Below are positions 1,712-52,734 of a stretch of 64,000 nucleotides of DNA, in pieces. The translations under genes were made by a program, and so were the position numbers. Position 1 is the first letter of the stretch, and each line of letters starts with the position of its first letter. Origin of the DNA: a virus (lineage: Duplodnaviria > Heunggongvirae > Uroviricota > Caudoviricetes > Demerecviridae); the IMG/VR virus record IMGVR_UViG_2595698513_000001, positions 30,745 through 94,744 of that record, one strand, 5' to 3'. The notes below the pieces were generated by a model that saw only the letters and a program-made list of their open reading frames with translations, ran no database searches and was not told where the DNA came from.

Positions 1712-1741
1712 TATCTCATAAATTGAAAACGGAGATTAAAT

Positions 1742-2778: not shown

Positions 2779-3217
2779 TGGAGCATGTCGTGGCAACCCT
2801 GGGGTAGGTGCTTGGGCTTTCGCTGTTTTTGAAGGCTGGGCTAAGAAAGGTACTAAAAGTGCTGCTATGCCACACACTACAAACAATGAGGCTGAACTTA
2901 CAGCCATTGTTAAAGCGTTAGAATGGGCGATTCGTGCCAACCTAACCGAAGTAGAAATCCTAACCGACTCTAACTATGCTTGCCAAGGTTATAAGACATG
3001 GATGCATGGTTGGGTTAAGAAAGGCTGGGTAACAGCAGGTGGAACTCCAGTTAAGAATCTAGAACTTTGGAAGACATTATATAATATTTCTCAAAAAATT
3101 GATGTCACCATGACAAAAGTTAAAGGTCACTCTGGTGATGAAGGTAACGAGTTGGCAGATACCTTGTGTAACTGTGCAATAGACGAGTGGGAACTCGAAA
3201 ATGTGGTGATGAAATGA
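2759..3217 (+). CDS. rnhA: ribonuclease H
   Basis: IYTDGACRGNPGVGAWAF, TNNEAEL, LTDSNY, VKGHSGDEGNELAD RNase H motifs. Confidence 0.85.
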   Translation: MLKIYTDGACRGNPGVGAWAFAVFEGWAKKGTKSAAMPHTTNNEAELTAIVKALEWAIRANLTEVEILTDSNYACQGYKTWMHGWVKKGWVTAGGTPVKNLELWKTLYNISQKIDVTMTKVKGHSGDEGNELADTLCNCAIDEWELENVVMK

Positions 3218-3414
3218 GTAATTTTACTTGGAATATTAACTTCCTAATATTCTGGCGTTTGGCATGGCTGAGAAAGTTGCCAGAAGGCTATACAGTAACT
3301 ATGGATGGTTGGGGGCATATAGGTCGTCTATACTTCACCACTCAAACTGACCCAGTAGGCTTTTACATCAAGCCTCTAGGCAAGAAAATTAAAAACCTAA
3401 TTGCTAAAGACTAA
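3214..3414 (+). CDS. hypothetical small protein
   Basis: ATGA overlap with rnhA stop. Confidence 0.4.
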   Translation: MSNFTWNINFLIFWRLAWLRKLPEGYTVTMDGWGHIGRLYFTTQTDPVGFYIKPLGKKIKNLIAKD

Positions 3415-3429
3415 AAAACAACGTATAAT
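3401..3429 (+). promoter_or_regulatory. T5-type early promoter TTGCTA-17-TATAAT plus conserved leader
   Basis: Leader AGTTCCATAAAGTTGAGAAACGGAGATTAAAAATG. Confidence 0.7.
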
Positions 3430-3461
3430 AGTTCCATAAAGTTGAGAAACGGAGATTAAAA

Positions 3462-3695
3462 ATGATTTTACCAGAAGATATTCAACCAAAAACCCATTGC
3501 ACTGTATACACCGCGAATGTCCGTTACACTGTATACACAGCTAAAGTCCCTTTCGGTGAGTTCCAGAAGGGCGACCCTGTGTTTGTGTACAAAACAATCG
3601 AAGGTCTAGGTGACTTAAAGGTACATAAAGGTATACCTATTGATAGTGATAAAGTTCACTACTTCTTTGACCATGAACTAGTTTTGGAGCAATAA
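3462..3695 (+). CDS. hypothetical early protein
   Basis: Directly after promoter 3401-3429 plus conserved leader. Confidence 0.6.
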   Translation: MILPEDIQPKTHCTVYTANVRYTVYTAKVPFGEFQKGDPVFVYKTIEGLGDLKVHKGIPIDSDKVHYFFDHELVLEQ

Positions 3696-3698
3696 AAT

Positions 3699-3890
3699 AT
3701 GCCGAAAGCAACCCTACGACAGGAAGTAACTGTCACATTAGAAATGACAGAGCATGAAGCTTACTGGCTTAGAGCCATGACTCAAAACTACCTAGGGCGT
3801 CCAGGAGATGAGCCCAAAGAAGATAAAGAGCTTCGTGAGAAGTTTTTTAATTCCTTAAAAAACTTACTAGATCAGCCTAAGATTCGTTAA
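3699..3890 (+). CDS. hypothetical small protein
   Basis: RBS GGAG then ATG. Confidence 0.5.
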   Translation: MPKATLRQEVTVTLEMTEHEAYWLRAMTQNYLGRPGDEPKEDKELREKFFNSLKNLLDQPKIR

Positions 3891-3898
3891 AAACTTAA

Positions 3899-3927
3899 TT
3901 GCTAAAGGCTGAAAAACAACGTATAAT
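3899..3927 (+). promoter_or_regulatory. T5-type early promoter TTGCTA-17-TATAAT plus conserved leader
   Basis: Near-identical copy of the 3401 element. Confidence 0.7.
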
Positions 3928-3958
3928 AGTTCCATAAAGTTGAGAAACGGAGATTGAA

Positions 3959-4225
3959 ATGGAAAGAATGAGTAAAGAGCCTGTAGTAGCCACTGGTTTC
4001 GAAGCGGTTGTTTGTAAAACTTGGGAAGGTTGGGATGCGGTTGATACAGCCTATCTGTACTTTGAACAAGTAGTTTTAACAGCGCCATACGCAACAATGC
4101 TTGGTGTAAAAGAAATCCCGTTTGTTGAGTTCGACCTCAATAACATGGTAGTCCATTTCTTCCTCTCAGACGAAGAGGGAGCAAAACCAATTACTAAGAA
4201 GCTCCAACTTAACGTGTTAGATTAA
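3959..4225 (+). CDS. hypothetical early protein
   Basis: After promoter 3899-3927 plus conserved leader. Confidence 0.6.
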   Translation: MERMSKEPVVATGFEAVVCKTWEGWDAVDTAYLYFEQVVLTAPYATMLGVKEIPFVEFDLNNMVVHFFLSDEEGAKPITKKLQLNVLD

Positions 4226-4233
4226 AAATCTAA

Positions 4234-4262
4234 TTGCTAAACACTGAAAAATTTTATATAAT
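4234..4262 (+). promoter_or_regulatory. early promoter TTGCTA-17-TATAAT
   Basis: Variant leader ATTCGCATAGTTTGAAAAGAAGGAAAAC. Confidence 0.65.
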
Positions 4263-4293
4263 ATTCGCATAGTTTGAAAAGAAGGAAAACAAT

Positions 4294-4569
4294 ATGACAG
4301 AACAAAAAGAAATCCTAAAACCTGTAGCTGGTGACTCACTTCTAATCGGTAAATACCAGTCAGGTGTTGACCGTAAAGGTAAACCAGTTTTCCGTTCTAT
4401 GCCGAAAGGTAAAGAACAACGTTCAGAAGTGAACGCTGTCTATGAAGATGGTCGTGTTCGTTCTGCGGAAGGCGATGTTTATTCAGTACGCCTACATAAG
4501 CGCCCAACAGTCATTAAGACTAAGCAGGGTAAAAAAGCAATGCCTGCTCAGTGGATTACTGTAGCGTAA
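4294..4569 (+). CDS. hypothetical early protein
   Basis: After promoter 4234-4262; RBS GAAGGAAAA. Confidence 0.6.
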   Translation: MTEQKEILKPVAGDSLLIGKYQSGVDRKGKPVFRSMPKGKEQRSEVNAVYEDGRVRSAEGDVYSVRLHKRPTVIKTKQGKKAMPAQWITVA

Positions 4570-4736
4570 TGGCTAAAGTACTTGTAGATGAGTCCCTATT
4601 ATGGGACTTACTTCACTCAAATATACTATTAATTCACCTAGAAAATGAAGGTGTAGATAATTGGTCTGGATACAACCATCCTGAAGACCTAGACGAACAA
4701 GCTGATAAACTATTGAAGGAAATAAAACATGGCTAA
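4569..4736 (+). CDS. hypothetical small protein
   Basis: TAATG overlap coupling. Confidence 0.4.
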   Translation: MAKVLVDESLLWDLLHSNILLIHLENEGVDNWSGYNHPEDLDEQADKLLKEIKHG

Positions 4737-4992
4737 GAATCTAACTACTGCTCAAAAACAAGCTCGTCGTTCTCACAAAGTAGCACAGACTGCTAAAAAT
4801 AAAGCAGCTCGTCGTGCCCGCCACGCTAAGCTACATCCTAATGATGAGCAAGTAGCAAAAGGCAAGCTTACTGAGCGCAAAGCACCTCGCGTGAAAGGTA
4901 ACTTCCGCAAAGTGAACAAGGCTTACCGTGATGATGCAGGTCACGTACTACCTGCTCCACGTTTCGCACCGCTACCTAAAGCGGAGAAATAA
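4729..4992 (+). CDS. highly basic small protein (possible nucleic-acid binding)
   Basis: K/R-rich 87 aa; ATGG overlap. Confidence 0.5.
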   Translation: MAKNLTTAQKQARRSHKVAQTAKNKAARRARHAKLHPNDEQVAKGKLTERKAPRVKGNFRKVNKAYRDDAGHVLPAPRFAPLPKAEK

Positions 4993-5189
4993 TGCGACCA
5001 CATGAGCAACGAGTGGTTGCAGAGCTCGATGAGCTAAAAACTAAGTGGAACGCTTTGTGGCAGTTCATCGACCATAATCCTGCTTTCAAGGGTATGGAAG
5101 AACAAGACCGAGACCTGTTAGTAGAACAGGCAGGTATAATGGAACAATATATGCAGATTCTAGAATCTCGCATCTCACGTTTCAAATAA
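4992..5189 (+). CDS. hypothetical small protein
   Basis: TAATG overlap. Confidence 0.45.
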   Translation: MRPHEQRVVAELDELKTKWNALWQFIDHNPAFKGMEEQDRDLLVEQAGIMEQYMQILESRISRFK

Positions 5190-5326
5190 TAAAGTAGTTG
5201 GCAGGCTTATAACAGTAAGTTAAGGTTCGACCTGACCCTGCCTACGTTTTTAGGAGACTATATGTCTAGAAAAGAAATTAACAAAAAGTGGAAACACTGG
5301 CGTCTATACCGTGATGGAGTAAAGAA

Positions 5327-5572
5327 ATGACACAACAAAATTTCGTGGCAAAACATTGCCGCACATTCAATAAAGCAACTGTCCAACGTGACAGAACCAA
5401 ATACCATCGCCCTAGCGCGCGTAGCTTGATGGATGAATGGTTTGAAGATGAAAACGACGGGTTCGAGCACCCAGGAATGGTCGAGCCAAAGGAGCTTGAG
5501 ACTCCTTCTATAAGCGATAGCGTTTATAAAAGAAGTTTCACTAACACAGGAGATAAATATGCCAGAGAATAA
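5327..5572 (+). CDS. hypothetical small protein
   Basis: ORF with ATGA coupling to a 22-aa upstream ORF. Confidence 0.4.
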   Translation: MTQQNFVAKHCRTFNKATVQRDRTKYHRPSARSLMDEWFEDENDGFEHPGMVEPKELETPSISDSVYKRSFTNTGDKYARE

Positions 5573-6317
5573 AATCGGCACAGCTTGTCCACACGCAGTA
5601 GGCGAGCCAGGAGTTGATGCAACGCAACTAATCCTTGCACATCAGCTCTATGGTAATGTAGACCCTGATTCACTAGAATTGAGTCCGGTATCACATCACC
5701 ACTTGAACTGGGTATTTGACCTAGAAACATATGCAACTAATCAGAATGCAATTGTACCTGAGCTATCAGCAGTAGCATTTGATATTCTTTCTGGTGAAGT
5801 ATTTCATGAAGCTACGTTCCACATTGATGTAGATTCTCAAGTTGCTCTGGGGCGCGAAGTTTCAGCTTCTACGTTATCATTTTGGCTAATGCAGTCAGAA
5901 GATGCTCGTCGCAAAATGTTGCTTGCTGATGCTGAATATTGTGAGAAAAATGACTTACCAGCACCTCTGCAAATTGGTGGGGCTATGGCTCAGCTAAGTC
6001 ATATTATTAAGACAGTATCAGCTACATGGGCTGAACAAACAGGTCTTAGTAAAGAACCTATGGTATGGGGTAACGGTATCACATTCGATTTAGGTAAAAC
6101 TATTTCATTATTTGAAACAGCACAAGTTCCTTTGCCTTGGCAATTCTGGGCAGAGCGTGATGCACGTACATTGATGGATTTAGCTCCAGGTATTAAGAAA
6201 GCATTTGGACAAGATTTCCAAGGCATTCCTCATTACGGTCTAGACGACTGTAAACACGAGCTACGTTACTTGTCTGCTACTTACATTAAAATCTGGGAAA
6301 TGAGCAAAAACGATTAA
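5559..6317 (+). CDS. DEDDh-type 3'-5' exonuclease (DnaQ-like)
   Basis: VFDLETYATN exo motif I; HYGLDDC motif III; RBS AGGAG. Confidence 0.6.
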   Translation: MPENKIGTACPHAVGEPGVDATQLILAHQLYGNVDPDSLELSPVSHHHLNWVFDLETYATNQNAIVPELSAVAFDILSGEVFHEATFHIDVDSQVALGREVSASTLSFWLMQSEDARRKMLLADAEYCEKNDLPAPLQIGGAMAQLSHIIKTVSATWAEQTGLSKEPMVWGNGITFDLGKTISLFETAQVPLPWQFWAERDARTLMDLAPGIKKAFGQDFQGIPHYGLDDCKHELRYLSATYIKIWEMSKND

Positions 6318-6324
6318 ACTTGAA

Positions 6325-6353
6325 TTGCTCAACTGCTAAAAACTCCGTATAAT
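6325..6353 (+). promoter_or_regulatory. early promoter TTGCTC-17-TATAAT
   Basis: Spacing read directly. Confidence 0.6.
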
Positions 6354-6392
6354 ATACACATATTCTGAAGAAAACAAAAGAAGGAAATAGAA

Positions 6393-6587
6393 ATGGCTAA
6401 ACGTTCTAAAATGATTGGTATTAAGATGGCTGACCGTACTCGTAAAATGACAGGTGAATACGGTATTAAAATGCTTGAGCAACGTCGTGCTGGTCTTGCT
6501 AAAATCCTAGGCCTGTTGGCTAAGGGTACCAACGTTTCAAACCACCCTCGTGCGGTTGAATACACGGCAGCTCAATTCGGTCTTTAA
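6393..6587 (+). CDS. hypothetical early protein
   Basis: After promoter 6325-6353. Confidence 0.55.
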   Translation: MAKRSKMIGIKMADRTRKMTGEYGIKMLEQRRAGLAKILGLLAKGTNVSNHPRAVEYTAAQFGL

Positions 6588-6638
6588 TTAGACCGATTTA
6601 AAACTCTCTTTTATTAACTAATTATAAGGATACCTAAT

Positions 6639-6875
6639 ATGAATGGTAAACAAGCAAAACTTATTCGCCGCATCGCTCGTGGTCTTACTTCTGTAGATTC
6701 TAACGAACTTGTAGAAGTAAAAGGTACTAAACGAGTACGCACAGCAGCTAACGGTGGTAAAGTAGTTACTCATACTATGGCACACGCTCAAGGTAGCTTC
6801 CGCAACATGTTGAAGGCATGTAAGTCTGACCGAGTATTCTCGTTCAATCCTGCGGAAAATGCTCACGTAGCTTAA
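6639..6875 (+). CDS. hypothetical small basic protein
   Basis: RBS TAAGGA. Confidence 0.5.
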   Translation: MNGKQAKLIRRIARGLTSVDSNELVEVKGTKRVRTAANGGKVVTHTMAHAQGSFRNMLKACKSDRVFSFNPAENAHVA

Positions 6876-6911
6876 TGTTACTAGCAGAGAGCATAAAAAT
6901 TAAAAATTGAA

Positions 6912-6940
6912 TTGCTCTCTGCTTAACTTCTTGCTATAAT
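6912..6940 (+). promoter_or_regulatory. early promoter TTGCTC-17-TATAAT (tandem upstream copy)
   Basis: No ORF for ~130 nt; second promoter at 7010. Confidence 0.5.
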
Positions 6941-7009
6941 GATTATCTACTTTGAAGAAAACCTCTTCATCAACTTTGAAAGCATTTGGTACTTAAATTA
7001 AAAATTGTC

Positions 7010-7038
7010 TTGCTAAGTGCTTTGAAACTTGATATAAT
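7010..7038 (+). promoter_or_regulatory. T5-type early promoter TTGCTA-17-TATAAT plus conserved leader
   Basis: Leader AGTTCCATAAATTGATAAGGAATTGAAGATATG. Confidence 0.65.
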
Positions 7039-7068
7039 AGTTCCATAAATTGATAAGGAATTGAAGAT

Positions 7069-7224
7069 ATGACAAAACGTGGTAAAATGCAAAAGATTGC
7101 AATGTTCTCTTTGGCTTACGGTTCTAGTGCTCCAATGGCTAGTAAGAAATCCGGTTTAGGATTACGTCGTACCAAATCATTAGCGAAACAAATTGCTGAA
7201 CGTGGATTTCGTATCAGAGACTAA
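7069..7224 (+). CDS. hypothetical 51-aa basic protein
   Basis: After promoter 7010-7038 plus conserved leader; below ORF-track cutoff. Confidence 0.45.
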   Translation: MTKRGKMQKIAMFSLAYGSSAPMASKKSGLGLRRTKSLAKQIAERGFRIRD

Positions 7225-7229
7225 ATAAT

Positions 7230-7303
7230 TGCGAGAATGGAGAAATGGCGTCTTGCGAGTTTCATAAGCTCGATAACGTGGGGTTCGAATCCCCATCTCG
7301 CAT
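7230..7303 (+). tRNA. tRNA, anticodon CAU (Met or Ile2)
   Basis: Acceptor TGCGAGA/TCTCGCA; anticodon stem CGAGT/GCTCG; loop TTCATAA; T-loop GGGGTTCGAATCCCC. Confidence 0.7.
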
Positions 7304-7312
7304 CCAAACATT

Positions 7313-7386
7313 GCGCGTGTAGCTCAGTTGGTTAGAGCATCTGACTTTTAATCAGGTGGTCGGTGGTTCGAGTCCACCTACGCGCA
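7313..7386 (+). tRNA. tRNA-Lys (UUU)
   Basis: Cloverleaf; loop CTTTTAA; T-arm GGTGGTTCGAGTCCACC; CCA follows. Confidence 0.85.
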
Positions 7387-7390
7387 CCAT

Positions 7391-7463
7391 ACACCGGAAG
7401 ACAGATGGATTGGTCGTCACCCTTTCAAGGTGGAGTTTGCGGGTTCGAGTCCCGTCCGGTGTA
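7391..7463 (+). tRNA. tRNA-Glu (UUC)
   Basis: Anticodon stem TCACC/GGTGG; loop CTTTCAA; T-arm GCGGGTTCGAGTCCCGT. Confidence 0.8.
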
Positions 7464-24850: not shown

Positions 24851-25522
24851 ATGAACAAAATGAATCTTTTAGCCTCTCTATATGCTTTATTGCAGGATAT
24901 AAAAGATCCAAAAACTCTGTTAATGAGAGTAATTTCTATTTTTATTCTCTTGGTTAGCTACCTGATAGTTACCAATCAGAGCACCCTCTTTGACTTTGCT
25001 AAGAACTTTTCAAGAACCACCGTTATAGAACAAGTACAAGCAGAAAGAGAAGCGCAATATCCTAGGGTTGCCAAGGAAAAAGCATCAATGCTATATGTGC
25101 AAGCTAACTCGGATGCTGTATTTATTGCGGAGTATACTCCCAAGTTTATCAATAACTACCAAGACATTGTTGCTTGGGAGGGTAAAATCAACGTAGACCC
25201 ATCGAAACTTAAAAAAGCAGTTATAGATAAATCAAGTGTTACTTACCAAAACCATTTGGTGGGTAGAAACCAGTCTATTCTGTTTGAAAAAGTAGTACCA
25301 ATGAGGGGGGCATTCGTTACTAATGGCTTAGAGTATGAATCTTTAGGCATAAAGTACATGTACACTTGCCCTATCTTTAACCAAGCAAATAGCTACTCTG
25401 GTTACGTTGGTATAGCATGGGCAGAAGAACCTTACGGGGATAAAAAAGAAAAGGCTCTATTGGAAGCATACCTAGAAAGGGTATGTAATCCACAAGCAAG
25501 GGCACTGGGGAGATATAAGTAA
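24851..25522 (+). CDS. putative holin (large, single TM)
   Basis: After promoter 24801-24829; RBS GGGGG; TM VISIFILLVSYLIV; immediately upstream of endolysin. Confidence 0.45.
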   Translation: MNKMNLLASLYALLQDIKDPKTLLMRVISIFILLVSYLIVTNQSTLFDFAKNFSRTTVIEQVQAEREAQYPRVAKEKASMLYVQANSDAVFIAEYTPKFINNYQDIVAWEGKINVDPSKLKKAVIDKSSVTYQNHLVGRNQSILFEKVVPMRGAFVTNGLEYESLGIKYMYTCPIFNQANSYSGYVGIAWAEEPYGDKKEKALLEAYLERVCNPQARALGRYK

Positions 25523-44544: not shown

Positions 44545-45009
44545 TTTGCACCCTAGAATCTGCACCAAAATATCCTCCCTAGCTTGGGCAAATTTAGTGC
44601 GAAGCACATATCTAGCCCAGATTCCCCATGTCAATTCTAAAGCCTAGGATTTGCACCTATTGTATAAGGTCTTCTGATTATAGTATTAGTCGGATTGAGA
44701 CCGGTTCAAGGAGCGACCCCCGTAATTGTCAATTGGTTTTTTCAAAAATCTGCACCAAACGCCCCAAAACTTTATTTTCCTCCATAAAACCCACCAAATA
44801 GCACCAAAATCTCCATATATCTCTAGAATTCGCACCTACCTCACCGCCCTAGCACCTATCAATTTTGCACCTCCCCCAATAGCGGCATGTTTTGTGCGCA
44901 GCACGAGTCTAGCCGCAGATAGGGGTGTAGTTTTTGCACCTACATAGAATTTGCACCTATAGTTTTCGCACCTACATGTATCACTTTTGCACCAGTCGGA
45001 TTTGCACCC
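44545..45009. repeat. iteron-like array: at least 13 copies of (T)TTGCACC(T)
   Basis: Copies at 44545, 44559, 44650, 44749, 44829, 44851, 44864, 44931, 44950, 44963, 44985, 45001; irregular spacing. Confidence 0.7.
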
Positions 45010-45090
45010 GCAGGCGCAGAGGATTAGAGGTTGCTAATAAAGTATGCCCTAAATTAGTGATCCCTATATTAGTGATTGCTTATAGACTTC

Positions 45091-45150
45091 TAGCCATCCA
45101 GCCATCCAGACGTTTAGCCGTCTATCCGTCTAGCCATCCAGACTTCTAGA
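45091..45150. repeat. short tandem repeats AGCCATCCAG x3, CCGTCTA x2, ACTTCTAG x2
   Basis: Read directly. Confidence 0.7.
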
Positions 45151-45203
45151 CTTCCGTATGCCATACCGTATAAAATATGGCACGATTTTTGCTTATTAAA
45201 AAG

Positions 45204-45299
45204 TTATCCACAACTGTATATTTATACATGGCTCTAAAACGCTCTATACAGAGTTATCCACAACCTTATCCACCGCAAAACTACTGTATATTTATACAG
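45204..45299. repeat. DnaA-box cluster (2x TTATCCACA, 1x TTATCCACC) interleaved with two copies of palindrome CTGTATA-TT-TATACAG
   Basis: Boxes at 45204, 45254, 45266; palindromes at 45213 and 45284. Confidence 0.65.
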
Positions 45300-45550
45300 T
45301 GCTTTTCAGGTAGCAGATTATTCCGAATACCGTTTAAAGCTCCTATAAGCCTCGCTAACAGCATCCTAGCGTCATAGCAATACCCTAGCAAGGGGTAAGC
45401 CCTAAACAGCCCACACGCAGCACATGCAAGAACCATGCCAACCTGCCCGACGGGCGCGGTCAAATGAGAACTATTCTCATTTACATGTTTACAGTACGCC
45501 ATACGGTAAAAGGCAAAAAATTACAGCGTCATAGTGACGCTGTAACAGTT

Positions 45551-45772
45551 TTAATCTATTTGAAAATCACGCACTATCTCTAGAAACTCGCTGATTAAAA
45601 TTCCATCACATCGAATCTCTTCATCGCTCATATGCAAATAGCGTACCACAAATTTATCGTATTCTATTTGCTCTATTGACTCTACTAGCTCATTTTTATA
45701 GTACAGTGGGCGGAAACCGGATTCTTGCAAATGTTGCAAGAATGATACTAACATTTCACTAGGTCTTAACAT
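45551..45772 (-). CDS. hypothetical small protein (minus-strand island)
   Basis: ATGA-coupled to upstream gene. Confidence 0.45.
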   Translation of the reverse strand: MLRPSEMLVSFLQHLQESGFRPLYYKNELVESIEQIEYDKFVVRYLHMSDEEIRCDGILISEFLEIVRDFQID

Positions 45773-45966
45773 TACCAGTTAGCCTCCAATTGATAAAGCT
45801 TCTCAATTACATCGAATTGCTCGCCTTGCTCATTTTGCCAAACTTGCCCAAATTCGGTGTTTTCTACGTGCTTCATTGCCATAGGTATTGTGTAATATTG
45901 CATTTCCCCCATAAATGCAATATTACACATCCAGACTTGCCCTAGTGTTTCAACGTGCTGTTTCAC
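45772..45966 (-). CDS. hypothetical small protein
   Basis: Part of collinear minus-strand block. Confidence 0.45.
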   Translation of the reverse strand: MKQHVETLGQVWMCNIAFMGEMQYYTIPMAMKHVENTEFGQVWQNEQGEQFDVIEKLYQLEANW

Positions 45967-46226
45967 TGGTCTAACTCCAATCCAAGGTAATAGAAAGCAG
46001 TGGCGAAAAAGTAACTAATCAAAAACTGGTCACTAAACTCATAATGACCGGATACACTAGCAATACCTATCCAACCTGTAATAAAAACTAACAATCCATT
46101 AACATGAAATAAGCTTTTCATTTTTCAATCACCAAAATCTTGTTATAGTCCATCCGTACAGTAAAAAACGGCTTGCCATTTCTAACCGCCCACAATAGGG
46201 CGGTAGCGTAGTTGTCAAATTCCATA

Positions 46227-46544
46227 CTAGGCTTTTAACCAACCATTAACAAAAGTTGCGCCCTCATAGATAGCTCGCCATGTTAACAAGTCAGCCCTAG
46301 CATACTGAAAAAGCATACCGCCATTAGTTGCGCCCTTAGCAAAAGCAATAGCATACGTTAAAACTTTTGCTTTAAGAATTTCCTCGACTGACTCAAACAA
46401 GCTAATGTGAGTTGTCAAGTCAAAATGATACTCTTTGTTTGACAAAAAGCATTGCGCCATTTCCATACGCTTGCTGATACTAGTTTCTGCGTTTAGTTGG
46501 TATGCAGTGCTTACTACTGGATTAGTTAGATATTGCTTGTGCAT
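46227..46544 (-). CDS. hypothetical protein
   Basis: Minus-strand block. Confidence 0.45.
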   Translation of the reverse strand: MHKQYLTNPVVSTAYQLNAETSISKRMEMAQCFLSNKEYHFDLTTHISLFESVEEILKAKVLTYAIAFAKGATNGGMLFQYARADLLTWRAIYEGATFVNGWLKA

Positions 46545-46571
46545 TTTGTTGTCCTCGCTTTCTAGCGGTAA

Positions 46572-46964
46572 TTAATGTTTTGTAGCTGTCATAATGCAAT
46601 CAGGATTTTCCCCGATTACGGTATATTCTTCTATAGCACGCTTGCCAGCGCTCTCCCAAGATTGGTCGTTTTTTGTTTTATTAGCTACACCGTGTAGGTA
46701 ATAGCCGTTACCAGTATCACGCTCTAATGAGAATGGTTTACCCATATCAAAAGCATTGTTATAAAAGTGATGTTCCCAAGTACCCTCGACATCAAACCAA
46801 CGCCACATATAATGCTCGAACATGGCTTTCATTTTGTCAAGTGCTAGCTGACATTCAACCTCGCTGATAATATCAGCCTCAAAGCCGTTGCGAACAATAG
46901 CAACCGCTTTATTCCAACCTAGTGAATCAATAGTTTCAGACAAAACAAGGAAATCAATTTTCAT
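46572..46964 (-). CDS. hypothetical protein
   Basis: Minus-strand block; start chosen at MKIDFLV. Confidence 0.4.
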   Translation of the reverse strand: MKIDFLVLSETIDSLGWNKAVAIVRNGFEADIISEVECQLALDKMKAMFEHYMWRWFDVEGTWEHHFYNNAFDMGKPFSLERDTGNGYYLHGVANKTKNDQSWESAGKRAIEEYTVIGENPDCIMTATKH

Positions 46965-47060
46965 GGTAAAACCCCTCGCCAAAATCGGTGGCGGTATCCG
47001 TTTAGGCATCAATTGCCTAGGTCTTTATAATACTAAAACCTAGGCATTATGTAAAGTGAT

Positions 47061-47381
47061 TTAGTTCACAAAATGGTAATCTATTTGGTCTATGCCAATT
47101 TCACGCCATACCATAGAACTTGTATCTAGTCCATAGTTATCTAGCATAGCAGATAAATCTGTTACACAATCTAGGTCGCACATCCCCTCGATACCCATAT
47201 CAGAGTTATAGAACATCATACAGAATGCAGGGTGTACCATAACTGCTAGTTCGTTGTCAGCGTCAATATACCAGATGGTAGATTCTGGGTCTTCTACAAA
47301 ACTGCTACGTTCTTCCTTGACATAGCGCACAATTGAGTCAAGACTCAATAGAGTAGGTGTTTCGTTACAGTTAAAAGCCAT
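47061..47381 (-). CDS. hypothetical acidic protein
   Basis: First gene of minus-strand block. Confidence 0.45.
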   Translation of the reverse strand: MAFNCNETPTLLSLDSIVRYVKEERSSFVEDPESTIWYIDADNELAVMVHPAFCMMFYNSDMGIEGMCDLDCVTDLSAMLDNYGLDTSSMVWREIGIDQIDYHFVN

Positions 47382-47735
47382 ATTATTTCAATCTCCAATA
47401 AGGGTAAAATCCAATTGCCATAGCTAGGCAAAATGCGATACTGAAAACTAATTCAAACATACTATGCCTACCTTGTCAAATAGTTTTTTCATACTAGCAG
47501 CCGTAGCCACACACTCGCCAGTCTCCGTACTGACACACCACCAAATAACATCAAAAAATATACGATACATTTTTTAAGCCCTCCGTGTTGGGTAGGTCTA
47601 TATAGTATCAATTCTAGCTCATTTGTCTAATAACGTTTTGTTATAAGCGGCAGCAAAACGATGCCCAGGCGTTATAAGCGCTGTAAGCGATTTTGAGAGG
47701 TTTTATATAAAAGCCTTACTTTAATATGTCTAGGT

Positions 47736-47846
47736 TGTGGATAACCGCTTAGAATGGATTCTACAGCCTAGAAACGCCATACTGTTATTTATAAGCTGTG
47801 ATTTAGGGTAGATAACTTTCGTTTTCCTGTTGATAAGTTGTGGATA
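47736..47846. repeat. inverted DnaA boxes TGTGGATAA and TGTGGATAT
   Basis: Complement orientation of TTATCCACA; matching palindrome copy at 48067-48082. Confidence 0.55.
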
Positions 47847-48310
47847 TACAGTATATAACCAGTATTATTAGACTTTGCTAATGTGAATAAGTCTGTTGAT
47901 AAAAAGTTGGCATGAAACCTGCTAGTGTATGCAAAAGTCGTGCCATGTCAAAAATCGTGCCAACTTTTCGAAATTTTCCTATTTGCTGCGAAAAGAATGT
48001 TTTAATACTAGGGCATAGCTAAGGGCTAAAATCGCTTAGAATCGCATACAGAGCGTTTTAGCGATACTGTATAAATATACAGTTAGTTGACTTTACTTGA
48101 AAAGTATGCTACACGCGCGCCCGTTCCTTATATTTGTGGGCAAAATTCGCTGATAGCCAAAACCTATCAATCTAGTGATTTTTAAAGATTTAAACGATTA
48201 GACTAATTTTCAAGATTCGCTATTATATACCCATACCAACGAGACAGGGCAGCAACAAAAACCCTAGCGAGTTGAGTATAGAAAGACTGAAAAGTTTTTC
48301 AAAAAAGTAG

Positions 48311-48339
48311 TTGACAAGCCAAACGGCTTTTGAGATACT
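48311..48339 (+). promoter_or_regulatory. candidate pre-early promoter TTGACA-17-GATACT
   Basis: A-tract upstream; ~165 nt before the 48504 CDS. Confidence 0.5.
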
Positions 48340-48413
48340 ACTAACGTTCTCAAGGGAACACGCTCTTTAAAAATTTGGAATATGCGATTTGACCTATTGC
48401 TTACTTGATTGGA

Positions 48414-48470
48414 TTGTTTGAGTGTTAACCGTTAACCGATTCATTGCGAGTCGGTTAACTGAGAAACACT
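48414..48470 (+). promoter_or_regulatory. nested inverted repeat in 5' UTR of first pre-early gene
   Basis: GAGTGTTAACCG...AACCGATTCATTGCGAGTCGGTT...AACACTC. Confidence 0.5.
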
Positions 48471-48503
48471 CTCATTTAACTAACCTATTAAGAGGAAAAT
48501 ATC

Positions 48504-48974
48504 ATGGCTAAGAAATGGACAGAAGAATCAGCAGCAAAAGCAGCAGAACTTTACAATGCTAAACTAGAAGCAGACGGTAAAGAAGCAGCAGCACACAACG
48601 ATTTTCTAGACACAATTGCAGCGCACGCAGAAGTGCAAGCCGTGTCAGGTAAAGCGGTTCGCTCAAAACTGACAGTTATGGGTATCTACCAAAAACCGGA
48701 CGCAGTTGCAAGTGTTGCGAAAACTAACACAGTGCGTAAAGAACACTATGTTCGTGCTCTAGCTCACAGCTTGAAAGTTGACGCAGAAGAACTAGACAGC
48801 CTCAAAAACGCTAAAATGTCAGCCCTAGCAGCTATCACAGAAGCTATTGGTATCACTGATATTATGGCAGCAAGCGCAAAAGATTATACGCCTAATGAGT
48901 TGATTCTCATTAAAGGTTTTGCGTTAGCGAATGGTATAGACCTAGCCGATATTGTAGACGACTTGGAAGACTAA
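48504..48974 (+). CDS. pre-early-region protein (Ala-rich, acidic)
   Basis: RBS AAGAGGAAAA; follows promoter 48311-48339 and 5'-UTR hairpin. Confidence 0.6.
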   Translation: MAKKWTEESAAKAAELYNAKLEADGKEAAAHNDFLDTIAAHAEVQAVSGKAVRSKLTVMGIYQKPDAVASVAKTNTVRKEHYVRALAHSLKVDAEELDSLKNAKMSALAAITEAIGITDIMAASAKDYTPNELILIKGFALANGIDLADIVDDLED

Positions 48975-48982
48975 CCCTAAAC

Positions 48983-49047
48983 AATTAAAGGGGAAATTTC
49001 CCCTTTAATTTACAGTGTAAATTGATGGACAGTTTACACTGTAAATT
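48983..49047 (+). promoter_or_regulatory. 28-bp perfect palindrome plus double-palindrome operator-like element (copy 1)
   Basis: AATTAAAGGGGAAATTTCCCCTTTAATT then AATTTACAGTGTAAA-11-TTTACACTGTAAATT. Confidence 0.6.
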
Positions 49048-49070
49048 AACCCATAATTGGAGATAAAACC

Positions 49071-49442
49071 ATGTCAAATCAAACTCAAATCATTGCGCTA
49101 GGTTCACTATTAGAAGCAGGTAATGCAAAAAGTGAGCTACAGCAAAAAGTGTCTAAACTGATTAACGTTCGTTTCGGTTGGCGAGTCAATGACCGTATTT
49201 CTAGCAAAACATTGCAAACCGTAATTGATTTAATAGAAAATCACGGCGGTAAAAAGCTATTCAACCCTAGCGAGCTAGATTCATTAGTTTATGCTAATAA
49301 AGCGGCAAAACTAACCGTGTTCAGCCTACTATGTGAAGCGTTAAAAATCACTGAGCTAACAGAGCGTAAAAATATTATGTCTATTGTTACTAGTGGCGGT
49401 GAACGTGAATTTCCGGTTCAAGTTCTAAAGGCATTCAGTTAA
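49071..49442 (+). CDS. A2-sized (123 aa) pre-early protein
   Basis: Size and position upstream of the A1-like gene, as in T5 FST DNA. Confidence 0.4.
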   Translation: MSNQTQIIALGSLLEAGNAKSELQQKVSKLINVRFGWRVNDRISSKTLQTVIDLIENHGGKKLFNPSELDSLVYANKAAKLTVFSLLCEALKITELTERKNIMSIVTSGGEREFPVQVLKAFS

Positions 49443-49450
49443 TAACGGGT

Positions 49451-49515
49451 TTACGCCCTTAAACTAGGGCGTAAATTTACAGTGTAAATTGATGGACAGT
49501 TTACACTGTAAATTT
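49451..49515 (+). promoter_or_regulatory. hairpin plus double-palindrome operator-like element (copy 2)
   Basis: TTTACGCCCTTAAACTAGGGCGTAAA then the identical 38-bp AATTTACAGTGTAAATTGATGGACAGTTTACACTGTAAATT. Confidence 0.6.
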
Positions 49516-49543
49516 CAACCAACCCCATAGCGGAGTATAAACA

Positions 49544-51199
49544 ATGTCTAAAGTATTAGTAGAAAACAAAGCGCAAATCCTTAAACTAGCAAAAGGCGAA
49601 AACTTTTGGGGCAAACGCCTTGACTCAAAACGTCGTGAGGTTGCAATCTCGATTCGTGATGCTCTTAAAATTGATGTACATTCTAGCAAGTTAATTGAGT
49701 TTCTGGACGATAACAAACCAGTAAACAAGACGCAGAAAAAATCGCATAGTCAGCAAGCGAAAGAAGATATTGAGCCAACGTTTGCAGGTTCAATGACAGG
49801 GCGTGATTATGAAAACCTAGACGATGGTTTATATATCATTACAGCAGCCCAAAACAATACACGCCCACACCCAGTATTAAATACTTTGTTGTCAATGGCT
49901 AAATCGTTGGATGCTGAGTTCGGTATCATGCCAATTAAATACACAACAACGTTGCAAGGTTTGGAGCGTAAAAAGCCTAGTTTTCACGCAGAAATCAAAA
50001 AGCATTTACTTGATTACACTGATACATGGTTGGGCGGTGAAGGTAACGTGCTACTCGCTAACAGTGCTCAAATTCTACCGACTGCAAAACAACCTATCAA
50101 TGCAGCCGAAAAGCTAAACACTGGCGAATCAATGACAGTAGTTGCAAGCCCTAGACGACAAACAAAAACCCTACCACGCCAGAAAAACGGCTCACATCGT
50201 TGGGTTTATACAACGGCAGTTTGTACGCTTAAACACTACACTGACAGTCGTGCAGGGGCAGAAGCGGAAGCAGAGCATTGTTTCGGTGGTATCTTGATTC
50301 AAGTTACTAACGGCATGGTTAATCACCGTCGATTAGTAGCAGACGAAAACGGCGTTATTGTTGATAATGGTTCGGTGTACTTCCCTGACGGTACAATCAA
50401 AGCTTACAATGATGTATTTGACAATCAGCCCGTAATTGTGCTAGGTGATTTGCATTGCGAAAAAATGTGCGACGACTCATTCACTCGTGCAACAAATTGG
50501 GCATTCGCTCAAAACCCTAAACTGATTGTTGTGCATGATGCTCTAGACTTTATGAGCCGTAATCACCACAACCGCGAGGACTGGACATTCTTATACCAGA
50601 TGCAAGACCGTGCAGTAATCGAAGATTTAGCCGATGTTATTAATCACTTGAATGCACTTGCTGACATTGCGCCTGTCTTTATTGTTGAGTCAAACCATGA
50701 TTTAGCCCTTGATTCGTGGCTACGTGATAATAAATTCGATGTACGAAAAGACCCGAAAAACGCCCGTACATATCATGCTCTAATGCTTGCTTATATTGAA
50801 GCAATGGACAACGGCACATTTAACGACCTAGCAAAAATGGATTTAGCATTCGCAGCCCTAGCCGACCAATTGCCAGAACTGAGCGAAAATATCGAGTTCG
50901 GCAAAATCGACGAACAAAAACTAGCGTATGGTTATGATATTTCAATGCATGGTCACGTGGGTACAGGTGGGGCTCGTGGTTCGGCTGTCAGCTTTAAGAA
51001 AATGCGAATCAAAACCATCACAGGACATACACACTCACCATTCGAAGATAACAACAATATTGTTGTCGGTGTAACTGGTAGTATGGAAATGGGTTACAAC
51101 AAAGGCGGTACAACTTGGGACAGAGCTAACGCTATTGTTTACCCGAACTCAACTTGTCAGCTAATCCCTATGTACTTGATTGGCGAACAACAATACTAA
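49544..51199 (+). CDS. A1: A1-like metallophosphoesterase (551 aa)
   Basis: GDLHCE, NHD, GHTH calcineurin-like motifs; size close to T5 A1 (556 aa); adjacent to dmp-like gene. Confidence 0.5.
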   Translation: MSKVLVENKAQILKLAKGENFWGKRLDSKRREVAISIRDALKIDVHSSKLIEFLDDNKPVNKTQKKSHSQQAKEDIEPTFAGSMTGRDYENLDDGLYIITAAQNNTRPHPVLNTLLSMAKSLDAEFGIMPIKYTTTLQGLERKKPSFHAEIKKHLLDYTDTWLGGEGNVLLANSAQILPTAKQPINAAEKLNTGESMTVVASPRRQTKTLPRQKNGSHRWVYTTAVCTLKHYTDSRAGAEAEAEHCFGGILIQVTNGMVNHRRLVADENGVIVDNGSVYFPDGTIKAYNDVFDNQPVIVLGDLHCEKMCDDSFTRATNWAFAQNPKLIVVHDALDFMSRNHHNREDWTFLYQMQDRAVIEDLADVINHLNALADIAPVFIVESNHDLALDSWLRDNKFDVRKDPKNARTYHALMLAYIEAMDNGTFNDLAKMDLAFAALADQLPELSENIEFGKIDEQKLAYGYDISMHGHVGTGGARGSAVSFKKMRIKTITGHTHSPFEDNNNIVVGVTGSMEMGYNKGGTTWDRANAIVYPNSTCQLIPMYLIGEQQY

Positions 51200-51279
51200 T
51201 CCTTAGCCTAACGGCTCGACGGGCGCAAATGTGACGCCCGTCACACTTTACAACTTACCCATATTTGGAGATTTTATTC

Positions 51280-51918
51280 ATGAAAAAAGCATATGTATTC
51301 GACCTTGACGGCACAACAATTGATTCATTCCACCGTGTTGAGCCTTGCCTAGATTCACAAGGCAACTTAAACCTTGACAAATACATTAAAGAGGCTTGCA
51401 CACCTGAGAAAGTCGCAGATGATACGCTCTTACCACTTGCCGGATATATGCAACAACTAATTGAGCAAGGTGAATTAGTAATCATTCTCACAGCACGATT
51501 CATGCTTAACCATGATTATGTTTATTTACGCAAAAATAAACTACGTGCGCCAATCATTTGCAGCCGTGACCAGTTGCCTCGTGTATTTGGTGAAGGCAAT
51601 GCAGCCCGTATCAGTGCAATGTCAGACGCGCCATATAAACATGAATGGTTTAATCACTTGTTTGCTAGTATGCCTCAAGTTACTGAGTGGTGTTTCTTTG
51701 ACGACCACGACGGTATATTAGAAATGGCTAATCAATTAAAAGGTGTTACAGCTACCGACGCCAAATTGATGAATGAGCTGTTACAGATGCAATGGGCTGA
51801 CATTTACCGCCAAGGTGAACAGGACACCGCCGAGCTAATACAAGACCTAATAGATGAATGTTCAACTCAAGACGTGATTTGCAAACCGGAATGGATTGAT
51901 GAGCTTTTAGCTCAATAA
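51280..51918 (+). CDS. dmp: HAD-family phosphatase, candidate 5'-deoxyribonucleotidase
   Basis: VFDLDGTT HAD motif I; position next to the A1-like gene. Confidence 0.5.
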   Translation: MKKAYVFDLDGTTIDSFHRVEPCLDSQGNLNLDKYIKEACTPEKVADDTLLPLAGYMQQLIEQGELVIILTARFMLNHDYVYLRKNKLRAPIICSRDQLPRVFGEGNAARISAMSDAPYKHEWFNHLFASMPQVTEWCFFDDHDGILEMANQLKGVTATDAKLMNELLQMQWADIYRQGEQDTAELIQDLIDECSTQDVICKPEWIDELLAQ

Positions 51919-52065
51919 TCAAAGAAAAGCTGTACAAATAAGAATGGCTCTCAATTGAGAGCCATTATCATATAGGGGGCGGTAATGAGACTAGTTCTCA
52001 TTTGGCTATGGCGGTACACCCCCTATCTTGTACAACTTTGTGAAAATTGAAGATTCGAAAGGGTG

Positions 52066-52734
52066 CTATAATACCTGTATCAATGATTTTACCTCCTGTG
52101 CCATATTTTCATCTAAAAGCAGAAACTCCGTGCCACCGTCTCCATCAAGTTTGTGCCTAAACTCTACATAGTTATATAGAATACTACTCTCTATCTCTTT
52201 GGCAGCCTCTGTATTTCTTATTAGAATTATCTCCGGCTCTGTAATATTTTGCCCAGATGCTACTCGTTTTATCCTTGACTTTACTAACTGAGTAGTACTT
52301 ACCCCTATCTTGTATATATTGGTTGAAGGTACTCTCCACATGTATACAGTATTAAATATCTTGCCTGCGCATACTGGACATCCTGAGCCCCTAACTACTT
52401 GTCCATATTCTGCTTCCCATTCATGGGAGCATATATCGCAGTGGAAAAGATGCTTACTATGTCTATTTACATATGTAGATATTAATTTAATATTACCGTG
52501 TACTTCTAGTATATCGGATTCTGCTTCTTCTTGAGTACGTTTTCTAGAACTACAGTGAGGGCACTTAGTCCCTCTGAATATATTATCAGGAGTTGTTTTC
52601 CAAGTATGTTTCTTATTACACTTAAATGTGTGTTGTTTATTAGAGCCTTTATACGGCTCAGCTAACATGATTGTTTCTCCATGTATCTCTAATATACGTT
52701 TATTTGCTTCTTCTGTAGTTAACTTCCTGCCCAT
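52066..52734 (-). CDS. tandem zinc-ribbon protein with C-terminal GIY-YIG-like region
   Basis: Two CxxC...CPxC ribbons; VYMWRV...IYKIGVS...R...E spacing resembles GIY-YIG. Confidence 0.35.
   Translation of the reverse strand: MGRKLTTEEANKRILEIHGETIMLAEPYKGSNKQHTFKCNKKHTWKTTPDNIFRGTKCPHCSSRKRTQEEAESDILEVHGNIKLISTYVNRHSKHLFHCDICSHEWEAEYGQVVRGSGCPVCAGKIFNTVYMWRVPSTNIYKIGVSTTQLVKSRIKRVASGQNITEPEIILIRNTEAAKEIESSILYNYVEFRHKLDGDGGTEFLLLDENMAQEVKSLIQVL

Follow-up and report, generated by a model that had tools for sequence, protein, structure and literature searches.

The pre-early region of the T5-like Vibrio phage pVp-1 contains two identical 41 bp elements, each of which is probably a closely spaced pair of parS2 sites, with one site in each arm and the host protein ParB2 as their reader. 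Judged from the sequence, the binding protein is most likely this host protein rather than a pre-early regulator of the phage, and the phage appears to recruit it onto the first DNA that is injected. At the sequence level the support comes from the identity of the sites, their clustering, conservation of the single site, restriction to Vibrio, the pair geometry found in the host and the co-occurrence with parS1 in one lineage.

The analyzed stretch of phage DNA (the window) is 64,000 nucleotides long and the elements are located at window positions 49007-49047 and 49474-49514. Their sequence is AATTTACAGTGTAAATT-GATGGAC-AGTTTACACTGTAAATT. Inside each arm lies the 13 bp palindrome TTTACA-N-TGTAAA (49009-49021, 49033-49045, 49476-49488, and 49500-49512), and in the first arm of each pair the palindromy extends to 17 bp. 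The preliminary description of this DNA had correctly reported the repeat, the position of the first copy, the palindrome in all four arms and a GC-rich hairpin directly in front of each copy (48987-49006 and 49453-49472, plus strand). It placed the second copy one base off, at 49475-49515, and gave the length of the element as 38 bp in its title; the two dyads that it noted in each copy are real, with centers 24 bp and not approximately 26 bp apart. A search of the window with TTTACANTGTAAA, allowing at most one mismatch, yielded four matches where 0.52 are expected, and four or more were found in none of 100 shuffled sequences.

The site parS2 is the centromere of chromosome 2 in the Vibrionaceae, to which the protein ParB2 binds (Yamaichi et al., 2007, as reported in PMC7022226, PMC3141006, and PMC3688505). 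Its 15 bp consensus, NTTTACANTGTAAAN, was taken from these three sources, of which one is a table in a review and two are primary papers of later date. The published consensus for parS1 is NGTTNCACGTGAAACN. According to the published data, the TGTAAA half-site is kept in 10 of 10 ParB2-competent sites, parS2 is confined to vibrios and photobacteria, and the ParB2 footprint covers approximately 20 bp. All four sites of pVp-1 fit the parS2 consensus perfectly, including the invariant TGTAAA half-site. The first element consists of site 1a (ATTTACAGTGTAAAT, 49008-49022) and, 24 bp away, site 1b (GTTTACACTGTAAAT, 49032-49046), the second of sites 2a (49475-49489) and 2b (49499-49513); the variable spacer is located at 49023-49031 in element 1, and the same sequence is present at 49490-49498 in element 2. 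The rebuilt pVp-1 genome (111,506 bp) contains exactly these four perfect parS2 sites, all in the two elements, and no site with one mismatch, while only 0.027 perfect sites are expected from the base composition. Three of the features by which parS2 is recognized are found here: the consensus, restriction to replicons of Vibrio and Photobacterium and the elements resident in them, and local pairing.

Both elements are located between genes of the pre-early operon, which are encoded on the plus strand. The first lies between the A2 homologue (156 aa, 48504-48974, annotated as "DNA binding protein"), which is directly 5' of this pair, and gp133 (123 aa, 49071-49442), which is bracketed by the two elements. 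The second lies between gp133 and the A1 homologue (551 aa, 49544-51199), for which a weak Metallophos match is found. The gene dmp, coding for deoxynucleoside-5'-monophosphatase (51280-51918, plus strand), is followed by no other gene up to the predicted physical left end. This end was located at approximately window position 52019 from its homology with the left end of VF16, which had been defined by PhageTerm. The copies do precede pre-early genes, as described earlier; the gene following the first copy, previously taken for the A2-sized gene, is however gp133 and not A2. The parS2 pairs belong to the terminal repeat. The predicted left end is about 2.5-3.0 kb away from them, and by analogy with T5-type infection the DNA carrying them would be the first to enter the cell. 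The terminal repeat region of pVp-1 also contains LexA-like boxes and perfect DnaA boxes.

Since the phage encodes neither ParA nor ParB, the reader of the sites would be the ParB2 resident in the host. Searches of the whole pVp-1 genome with Photobacterium proteins (tblastn and phmmer --max) resulted in noise only, with a best E above 1 for ParB2 and of 0.47 for ParA2. The whole JSF10 genome gave no tblastn match to ParA2 or ParB2 at E ≤ 1, and the phage annotation that we viewed lists no ParB. A self-contained ParABS system has its own ParA ATPase and ParB, which are found in neither pVp-1 nor JSF10. A2 was rejected as a ParB-like protein, because its sequence has no match in the PDB, its AlphaFold model (all-helical, pLDDT 84.8) none in Foldseek (best E 0.98), and A2, like gp133, no significant one in the Pfam copy used. 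A2, a DNA-binding protein that is always encoded just 5' of the first site, could conceivably be a second reader of the sites. Homologues of A2 were detected by tblastn in 596 T5-like records, and the protein carries a precomputed PF26822 label that added nothing to its interpretation.

The preliminary description had proposed searching the rest of the genome and related phages, and had named absence from relatives as a refutation. Outside the four sites nothing further was found in pVp-1, and related Vibrio phages do carry paired or single sites. In Ceto, VF16, KIT04, Thalassa, and JSF10 the arms are invariant, site 1a included, and the spacers are variable: among pVp-1 and its relatives they read GATGGAC, GCTTATC, TACCCA, GATAGGC, and CGTTGTG, and in JSF10 the spacer is 12 nt long. 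From center to center, the paired sites are 23-24 bp apart in pVp-1 and its clade, compared with 29 bp in JSF10. In D260 and JSF10, which are distant Vibrio T5-likes, A1 is flanked by single parS2 sites (two in D260 and one in JSF10). Because single copies occur in these two phages and the spacers vary, the conserved unit is, as far as this comparison goes, the single 15 bp site. Altogether, JSF10 contains three perfect parS2 sites, all of them pre-early, with 0.019 expected. Achelous has one uncompensated change; since the change breaks the parS2 consensus as well, it is weak evidence regarding a pairing of the arms. The first site is directly 3' of A2 in all relatives compared, and gp133 comes and goes: KIT04, which lacks gp133, has exactly one element, and Thalassa keeps a gp133 homologue (53% identity) and has no element in front of A1. 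JSF10 and D260 also lack gp133, and parS2 sites are present in all three phages without this gene. As direct repeats on either side of gp133, the two pairs would also explain its gain and loss among the relatives.

Every T5-like phage in which we found a parS2 site infects Vibrio. The corresponding loci of T5, S124, and PWKp9S contain no parS2 site, even if one mismatch is allowed. The A2 protein of D260 is 39-41% identical to enteric A2 proteins and 27-32% identical to those of other Vibrio phages, and the parS2 site is unchanged across A2 proteins that share only 27-47% identity. The presence of the sites, as seen in these comparisons, tracks the host genus and not the phylogeny of A2 or A1. 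Since enteric T5-likes manage without a par site, the parS2 sites would be an add-on and not a part of core T5 biology.

The same sites are found in host DNA. A scan of genome contigs with a pattern of 14 specified bases, which covers a sample and returns mostly single chance matches in AT-rich genomes, gave Vibrionaceae for 11 of 120 genome loci among the matches listed and for five of the seven loci with at least two sites. The host parS2 sites flank a ParA/ParB pair with a TIGR00180 match above cutoff. Metagenomic loci with an inverted pair, whose species assignment comes from ParA2/ParB2 similarity only, encode ParA2/ParB2 homologues in 15 of 22 cases, with the pair being located within a few kb of parA2/parB2; A1, A2, or dmp is present in none of the 22. 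The pairs are spaced 24-34 bp from center to center. The 15-mers ATTTACAGTGTAAAT and GTTTACACTGTAAAT also adjoin parA2/parB2 in Vibrionaceae DNA, the latter being found on host chromosomes for instance at two of our loci, L081 and L257. The phage sites therefore share with native parS2 the 15 bp consensus, the very same 15-mers and the close pairing; they differ in being located on a virulent phage, in the pre-early operon of a terminal repeat, without parA/parB or a chromosome 2 origin nearby. Capture from a particular host was considered for a pair with the spacer GAAGGAC (GATGGAC in pVp-1), which is identical at 37 of 41 positions, and was rejected, as with the number of comparisons made approximately 0.3 matches of this quality would be expected. 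In one JSF10-like contig (L155) a perfect parS1 site, TGTTTCACGTGAAACA, abuts the parS2 pair, and JSF10 itself has two parS1-like sites with one mismatch, both pre-early, where 0.13 are expected.

The dyads had been interpreted earlier as tandem operators for a dimeric regulator. They are indeed of the type bound by dimeric proteins; given the exact consensus match they are however most likely host parS2, and we find no support for an operator of a phage pre-early protein. We consider it improbable that the sites are operators for a dimeric pre-early regulator of the phage (A2, gp133, or another) and that the parS2 match is coincidental or mimicked. Such operators would agree with the dyad symmetry of the sites, their location inside the pre-early operon, the constant position of the annotated DNA-binding protein A2 directly 5' of the first site, and the requirement of T5 pre-early shut-off for a pre-early product, A1. 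They would not explain the exact fit to a host-specific consensus of 12 positions, a pair geometry as on host chromosomes, or a distribution that follows the host genus and not the A2/A1 phylogeny. The perfect parS1 beside the pair in L155 would be superfluous for a phage regulator, the same sites are found in X29 and MAR10/SSP002 at loci without an A1, A2, or dmp homologue, and gp133 is missing from KIT04, JSF10, and D260. An operator should adjoin a promoter and co-vary with the gene for its cognate regulator, and neither was observed. The promoter scan identified no sigma-70-like promoter overlapping either element, and the nearest plus strand candidates, upstream of A2 at 48199-48505 (best-scoring 48311-48339), are about 0.5-0.8 kb 5' of the first element. 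TTTACA resembles a −35 hexamer and was rejected as such, since manual checking of the copies and relatives revealed no conserved −10 with a suitable spacing. By inspection, TyrR boxes (TGTAAA-N6-TTTACA) and LacI-family operators have the opposite order of half-sites or a different spacing, and there is no fit to CRP, Fur, IHF, or HapR/LuxR-type motifs.

RNase III or antitermination sites had been suggested as another possibility. In RNA the inverted pair would form a hairpin of approximately 19 bp, which could act, together with the GC hairpin, as an RNase III site, a stabilizer, or an attenuator; this we regard as slightly less probable still than a phage operator. The predicted stem is perfect over 19 bp with a loop of 5 nt (dG −21 to −22 kcal/mol, z about −8), is intercistronic, directly follows the GC hairpin and is located approximately 25-30 nt ahead of the start codon that comes next. 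The loop sequence varies freely, as a hairpin would allow, a short second hairpin is present at analogous positions in T5 and enteric relatives, and the one in front of A2 covaries in the Klebsiella phage PWKp9S. The arms themselves, however, never vary and thus provide no covariation, whereas the neighboring GC hairpins do vary with compensation: in the relatives their sequence changes and the pairing is kept. The single sites of D260 and JSF10 allow only a weak, AU-rich hairpin of 5-6 bp and cannot form the long stem, so a conserved function in RNase III cleavage or antitermination is unsupported; the approximately 20 bp stem typical of RNase III-type sites is present in pVp-1, but the long stem is not conserved in relatives. 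In addition, the D260 site lies before and not after the GC hairpin, Thalassa has no element before A1, a search of 47400-52200 identified no Rfam family beyond chance, and the same pair is found on host chromosomes outside the operon context. The arrangement resembles the RNase III sites of T7 early mRNA in having an intercistronic hairpin of approximately 19 bp beside a stable GC hairpin, and differs from them in that the conserved unit is a single 15 bp site and the pairing has no covariation support. The long RNA hairpin is probably incidental; its formation and cleavage may still occur as a by-product of the sites being inverted. Regarding the GC hairpins, the one after A2 was flagged as terminator-like, and on both strands, and the one after gp133 was not; terminator-like sites are no commoner in this region than in shuffled sequences, and T5 has similar hairpins after most of its pre-early genes.

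The least probable explanation is that the repeats are recombination scars or cassette boundaries for gain and loss of gp133, like the promoter-stem-loop cassettes of T4-type phages, without any role in protein binding: identical 41 bp direct repeats bracketing gp133, the one element of KIT04 and the missing downstream element of Thalassa would agree with this, but it accounts for the duplication and not for the sequence, and leaves unexplained the exact parS2 identity, why the arms are invariant and the spacers free, why D260 and JSF10 have single sites flanking A1, the neighboring parS1 and the sites in unrelated phages.

If the sites are parS2, the published behavior of ParB2 suggests that ParB2 dimers would bind each of them and that a partition complex would start there and spread along the incoming DNA. 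On chromosomal sites ParB2 has been reported to spread and to silence promoters approximately 1 kb away, and about 20 ectopic parS2 copies block the replication of an oriCII plasmid. By analogy with phi29 and Spo0J, the selected function might be to couple the phage DNA to the ParA2/ParB2 positioning or segregation machinery of the host, which we put forward tentatively. We are more doubtful that the sites mainly serve to damp the A2-gp133-A1-dmp operon, through a roadblock or the spreading of ParB2, and a function in titrating ParB2 off chromosome 2 as the phage genomes multiply seems rather unlikely, although both effects would follow automatically from ParB2 binding. Pre-early shut-off was proposed earlier to be controlled by these elements, and a link through ParB2-mediated silencing is conceivable; in T5 this shut-off requires A1. 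An early destruction of host DNA by way of A1, as assumed for T5-type phages, makes a segregation role and a need to sabotage chromosome 2 less obvious. The first-step DNA is short and linear, and ParB clamps could be lost from it by sliding over its free end, which is a further point against this proposal.

A precedent is the Bacillus phage phi29, which contains five host parS sites that are bound by Spo0J and serve spore entrapment (PMC2731898). Like phi29, pVp-1 is a virulent phage without its own ParB that carries several copies of a host ParB-binding site, and while the phi29 sites co-occur with Spo0A boxes, those of pVp-1 share their terminal repeat region with LexA-like and DnaA boxes. 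It differs in its host clade, which is non-sporulating, in the clustering of the sites in the DNA that is presumably injected first, and in the protein, as ParB2 is of the plasmid type and serves a secondary chromosome, whereas Spo0J serves the primary one; the JSF10-likes add parS1. Plasmid prophages and phage-plasmids such as P1 and N15 likewise have centromere-like parS repeats on phage DNA, but they persist as plasmids and have genes for a cognate ParA and ParB; the virulent T5-likes pVp-1 and JSF10 encode neither protein. For T5-like phages an injection-stop region rich in DnaA boxes has been proposed (Davison, bioRxiv 10.1101/866236). There too, first-step-transfer DNA would present sites for a host chromosome-maintenance protein, which is DnaA in the untranslated iss region, and would be ParB2 in the A2-A1 spacers of pVp-1.

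If ParB2 is loaded onto these sites, a virulent phage would use the segregation protein of the secondary host chromosome from the first minutes of infection, and phage takeover would be tied to the two-chromosome biology that is specific for Vibrio. In T5-type infection the sites would offer a mutable handle on how pre-early genes are shut off, how first-step DNA is handled and how DNA transfer restarts. What is known from phi29 and Spo0J would gain a counterpart with a plasmid-type ParB in marine pathogens that are Gram-negative. As these phages are candidate therapeutics in aquaculture and against cholera, a dependence or effect on ParB2 would bear on host range, resistance, and carrier states.

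Clusters of parS2 are also present in X29/phi 2 and MAR10/SSP002, which are unrelated to the T5-likes. As an overview, lineages with parS2 comprise the T5-like Ermolyevavirinae, the Mardecavirus group (MAR10/SSP002) and the integrase-bearing X29/phi 2. We found no homologues of A1, A2, or dmp at the site-bearing loci of X29 and MAR10/SSP002. At least three unrelated vibriophage lineages could thus have captured host centromeres independently, and such "centromere piracy" might be a general infection strategy, which is at present a speculative generalization. Three outcomes are conceivable: ParB complexes on the DNA that enters first would control the pre-early program or the restart of DNA transfer, a stalled genome would be partitioned together with chromosome 2 in slow-growing cells, resulting in a carrier state, or replication and segregation of chromosome 2 would be crippled through titration of ParB2. 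A 125 kb viral contig (L171) has no relative in the phage collection. The exact double element of pVp-1 is found in two IMG/VR contigs only.

The window aligns at 100% identity to the T5-like Vibrio phage pVp-1 (NC_019529; Demerecviridae, Ermolyevavirinae, Vipunavirus), and subtracting 30744 from a position of the pVp-1 record gives the window position. Four genes on the + strand are relevant here: A2 (48504-48974, 156 aa, annotated as 'DNA binding protein'), gp133 (49071-49442, 123 aa), A1 (49544-51199, 551 aa) and dmp (51280-51918), which codes for deoxynucleoside-5'-monophosphatase. In the related phage VF16 the same genes are located inside the 7.4-kb left terminal repeat defined by PhageTerm (1-7427), with dmp at its extreme end. 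Judged by this gene arrangement, pVp-1 was deposited in permuted form; the record seems to contain a single copy of the terminal repeat (about 44600-52019), and the physical left end is predicted by homology to VF16 at about 52019. The terminal-repeat DNA of T5 is the first-step-transfer DNA and the earliest to enter the cell; by homology, we assume first-step entry for the pVp-1 repeat as well.

A preliminary description had reported two identical copies of a double palindrome in this region. Both were found, 41 bp each, with the sequence AATTTACAGTGTAAATT-GATGGAC-AGTTTACACTGTAAATT at 49007-49047 and 49474-49514; the second interval had originally been shifted by one base. The palindrome TTTACA-N-TGTAAA is present within every arm and a GC-rich hairpin lies directly 5' of both copies, as described. 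The dyad centres of an element are 24 bp apart, and the elements are located 2.5-3.0 kb from the predicted left end. A search of the window allowing one mismatch gave four matches, compared to 0.52 expected. In the whole pVp-1 genome, assembled from the window and two further pieces of the record, the four sites of the elements are the only perfect ones (0.027 expected from composition), and sites with one mismatch do not occur.

The arms in the close relatives Ceto, VF16, KIT04 and Thalassa are both identical to those of pVp-1, while the spacers between them differ in length and sequence (GATGGAC, GCTTATC, TACCCA, GATAGGC and CGTTGTG in pVp-1 and these relatives). The sequence of the GC hairpin 5' of the element is altered among the four relatives but its pairing is kept. 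The arms are thus constrained in sequence and the hairpin in structure only. KIT04 lacks gp133 and has one element; Thalassa encodes a gp133 homologue (53% identity) and lacks the element before A1. The two elements are thus direct repeats bracketing a gene that is variably present. No Pfam family matches gp133, and the gene is absent from KIT04 and from the deeper-branching T5-like vibriophages JSF10 and D260; its position between identical direct repeats of 41 bp suggests that recombination has added or removed it. JSF10 (A2 47% identical) carries a site pair with a 12-nt spacer and one single site directly 3' of A1. D260 (A2 32% identical) has two single sites only, one adjoining the stop codon of A2, the other 3' of the gene following A1, and both are located 5', not 3', of a GC hairpin. 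Because JSF10 and D260 carry single sites, the conserved unit is the single 15-bp palindrome ATTTACA(G/C)TGTAAAT, and neither the long hairpin nor the hairpin-plus-element layout.

By sequence identity, this 15-mer is the published centromere sequence of Vibrio chromosome 2. The parS2 site of V. cholerae chromosome II is NTTTACANTGTAAAN (10 sites) and the parS1 site of chromosome I is NGTTNCACGTGAAACN; the half-site 5'-TGTAAA is fully conserved across all 10 ParB2-competent sites, parS2 is confined to vibrios and photobacteria, and the ParB2 footprint covers about 20 bp around parS2 (PMC7022226, PMC3141006, PMC3688505). A scan for ATTTACANTGTAAAT with one genome per species gave mostly lone chance matches in AT-rich genomes among the matches listed. 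Vibrionaceae nevertheless account for 11 of the 120 listed loci and for five of the seven listed loci that have at least two sites; these Vibrionaceae loci carry the exact phage 15-mers with G or C at the centre. At two Photobacterium loci the sites flank a pair of partition proteins, a ParA of the plasmid type and a ParB/RepB/Spo0J protein. Scanning metagenomes for the inverted pair gave 22 loci, 15 of them with ParA2/ParB2 homologues, whose similarity gave the taxonomic identity, within a few kb; none of the 22 encodes phage A1, A2 or dmp. The two sites of a host pair are separated by 24-34 bp from centre to centre (24-26 bp in 13 of 22). In phages of the pVp-1 clade this distance is 23-24 bp, in JSF10 it is 29 bp, and in the V. 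cholerae phage X29 it is 33 bp. Since the 15-mer equals parS2 and the host spacing matches, the double palindrome is a parS2 pair in its native geometry.

An RNA-level role of the element hairpin, as an RNase III or attenuation site, had also been considered. As RNA the element would form an uninterrupted stem of 19 bp closed by 5 loop nucleotides, with dG -21 to -22 kcal/mol and z about -8; its intercistronic position would fit, and short second hairpins are found at analogous places in T5 and enteric relatives, one of them covarying. However, the single sites of D260 and JSF10, the invariant arms and the host-chromosome identity argue otherwise, and the RNA fold is probably a by-product.

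Clusters of parS2 also occur in unrelated vibriophages. X29 / phi 2 (41.6 kb, integrase-bearing; NC_024369 about 24880-24930) has a parS2 pair (99-150 of its locus L195) 3' of a terminator and 5' of a gene near the integrase. The Mardecavirus siphophages MAR10 (NC_019713 about 76.8-77.6 kb; 811, 1380 and 1600 of locus L145) and SSP002 (2534 and 3100 of locus L278) have three and two sites near one record end. Two sites are shared between them, and two Mardecavirus sites are located about 35 bp 5' of small genes with a common leader sequence. Outside these phages, a 125-kb viral contig (L171, IMGVR_UViG_3300033688_000038) without relatives in the phage collection searched carries parS2 at 6075 and 6127, two sites of like orientation separated by 52 bp and directly upstream of a gene.

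Four results point to a host protein as the likely reader of the sites, among them this occurrence in unrelated vibriophages. No ParA2/ParB2 homologue is detectable in pVp-1 or JSF10. Site presence tracks the host and not phage protein phylogeny: D260 carries exact sites despite an A2 that is nearer to enteric A2 (39-41%) than to that of pVp-1 (32%) or JSF10 (27%), and the loci of the enteric phages T5, S124 and PWKp9S have no sites, even with one mismatch allowed. In addition, a JSF10-like contig (L155, IMGVR_UViG_2706795039, about 2925-3000) has a perfect parS1 site, TGTTTCACGTGAAACA, in the A2-A1 spacer adjoining the parS2 pair, and JSF10 (locus L011, 4530-4550 and 6700-6720) contains TGTTTCACATGAAACA and TGTTCCACATGAAACA, each one mismatch from parS1 and both pre-early (0.13 expected genome-wide). 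Beside the binding sites of a phage regulator, the centromere of the other chromosome would not be expected. These four results disfavour an operator for a phage-encoded regulator, the main idea of the preliminary description, as does the lack of promoters overlapping the sites; the best promoter candidate is ~0.7 kb upstream of the first pair. A2, whose AlphaFold model is all-helical and which matches nothing in the PDB by sequence or by structure, is a possible second reader. A mere recombination scar would account for the duplication around gp133 but leaves the sequence unexplained.

The data establish what the sites are, that they cluster, that they are conserved and that they are restricted to particular hosts. 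Going by published ParB2 behaviour, resident ParB2 dimers would attach to the individual sites as the terminal repeat comes in and would seed a partition complex that spreads from there. In published work ParB2 spreads from one parS2 and silences promoters at a distance of about 1 kb, and when parS2 copies rise from about 10 to about 20, titration blocks oriCII-based replication. The pVp-1 sites are within the A2-gp133-A1-dmp operon, and given the terminal-repeat structure each genome would carry sites in both repeats. Among virulent phages, host parS sites are documented before only in phi29; its five sites, with host Spo0J, steer the genome into the prespore, and it also has Spo0A boxes that repress early promoters (PMC2731898). 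Because of this precedent, we tentatively put first, as the most likely selected function, a coupling of the phage DNA to the host machinery that positions and segregates DNA through ParA2/ParB2. Local silencing or a roadblock of the pre-early operon is a somewhat less probable main function and ParB2 titration a still less probable one; both would follow from ParB2 binding anyway, and either may be the main point.

Phage use of host parS is established for phi29/Spo0J. In the literature searched, parS2 appears for chromosomes or as a labelling tool only, and par sites of T5-like vibriophages were not found. New are the plasmid-type ParB2 centromere of a secondary chromosome on a phage, the location of sites in what would be, by analogy to T5, the first-injected DNA, the apparent recurrence in other vibriophage lineages, and the additional parS1 of one lineage. 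Davison's work on palindromes in the T5 terminal repeat is about the injection-stop region and leaves Vibrio unmentioned (bioRxiv 10.1101/866236).

The predicted terminal repeat contains further motifs. All three LexA/SOS-box-like palindromes of the window (CTGTAT-N4-ATACAG; 45214-45229, 45284-45299 and 48067-48082; two perfect, one with one mismatch) are located there (0.27 expected), the copy at 48067 in a divergent non-coding region of roughly 900 bp that lies upstream of A2. Three of the window's four perfect DnaA boxes, TTATCCACA, are also in the repeat (45204-45212, 45254-45262 and 47736-47744, - strand; 0.78 expected window-wide), and two abut or neighbour LexA-like boxes. This grouping is reminiscent of the DnaA-box model that Davison proposed for the injection-stop region of T5 (bioRxiv 10.1101/866236). 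About eight degenerate 8-bp units (TAGCCATC / CAGCCATC / TAGACGTT and similar) at 45075-45154 adjoin the DnaA and LexA boxes and possibly belong to an iss-like repeat region. The palindrome AATGAGA-N-TTCTCATTT has three terminal-repeat copies (45461-45482, 48458-48477 and 51984-52004); the last, just 3' of dmp and about 15-35 bp from the predicted physical end, is kept in Ceto, VF16, Thalassa and JSF10. The GC hairpin GACGGGCGCAAATGTGACGCCCGTC between A1 and dmp (51220-51250) is strongly conserved and near-identical in Ceto, VF16 and KIT04; the remaining intercistronic hairpins are variable. A pre-early leader motif just 5' of the Shine-Dalgarno sequence (49048-49070, 49516-49543 and 51255-51279) reads ACCCAT-N-(T)GGAG in Vibrio phages and, in intergenic regions of T5, AATCCCTT-N-GGAG; it could fold into a small hairpin sequestering the ribosome-binding site. 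Different short palindromes are located directly 3' of GC hairpins in T5 (locus L010), GATTAACATTATGTTAATC before A2 (4160-4180) and TTGGCAATATTGCCAA before A1 (3410-3430). Comparable enteric palindromes are at analogous positions in loci L013 and L014, and in Klebsiella phage PWKp9S the one before A2 is changed with compensation (GGCTAACTTTCTAGCC).
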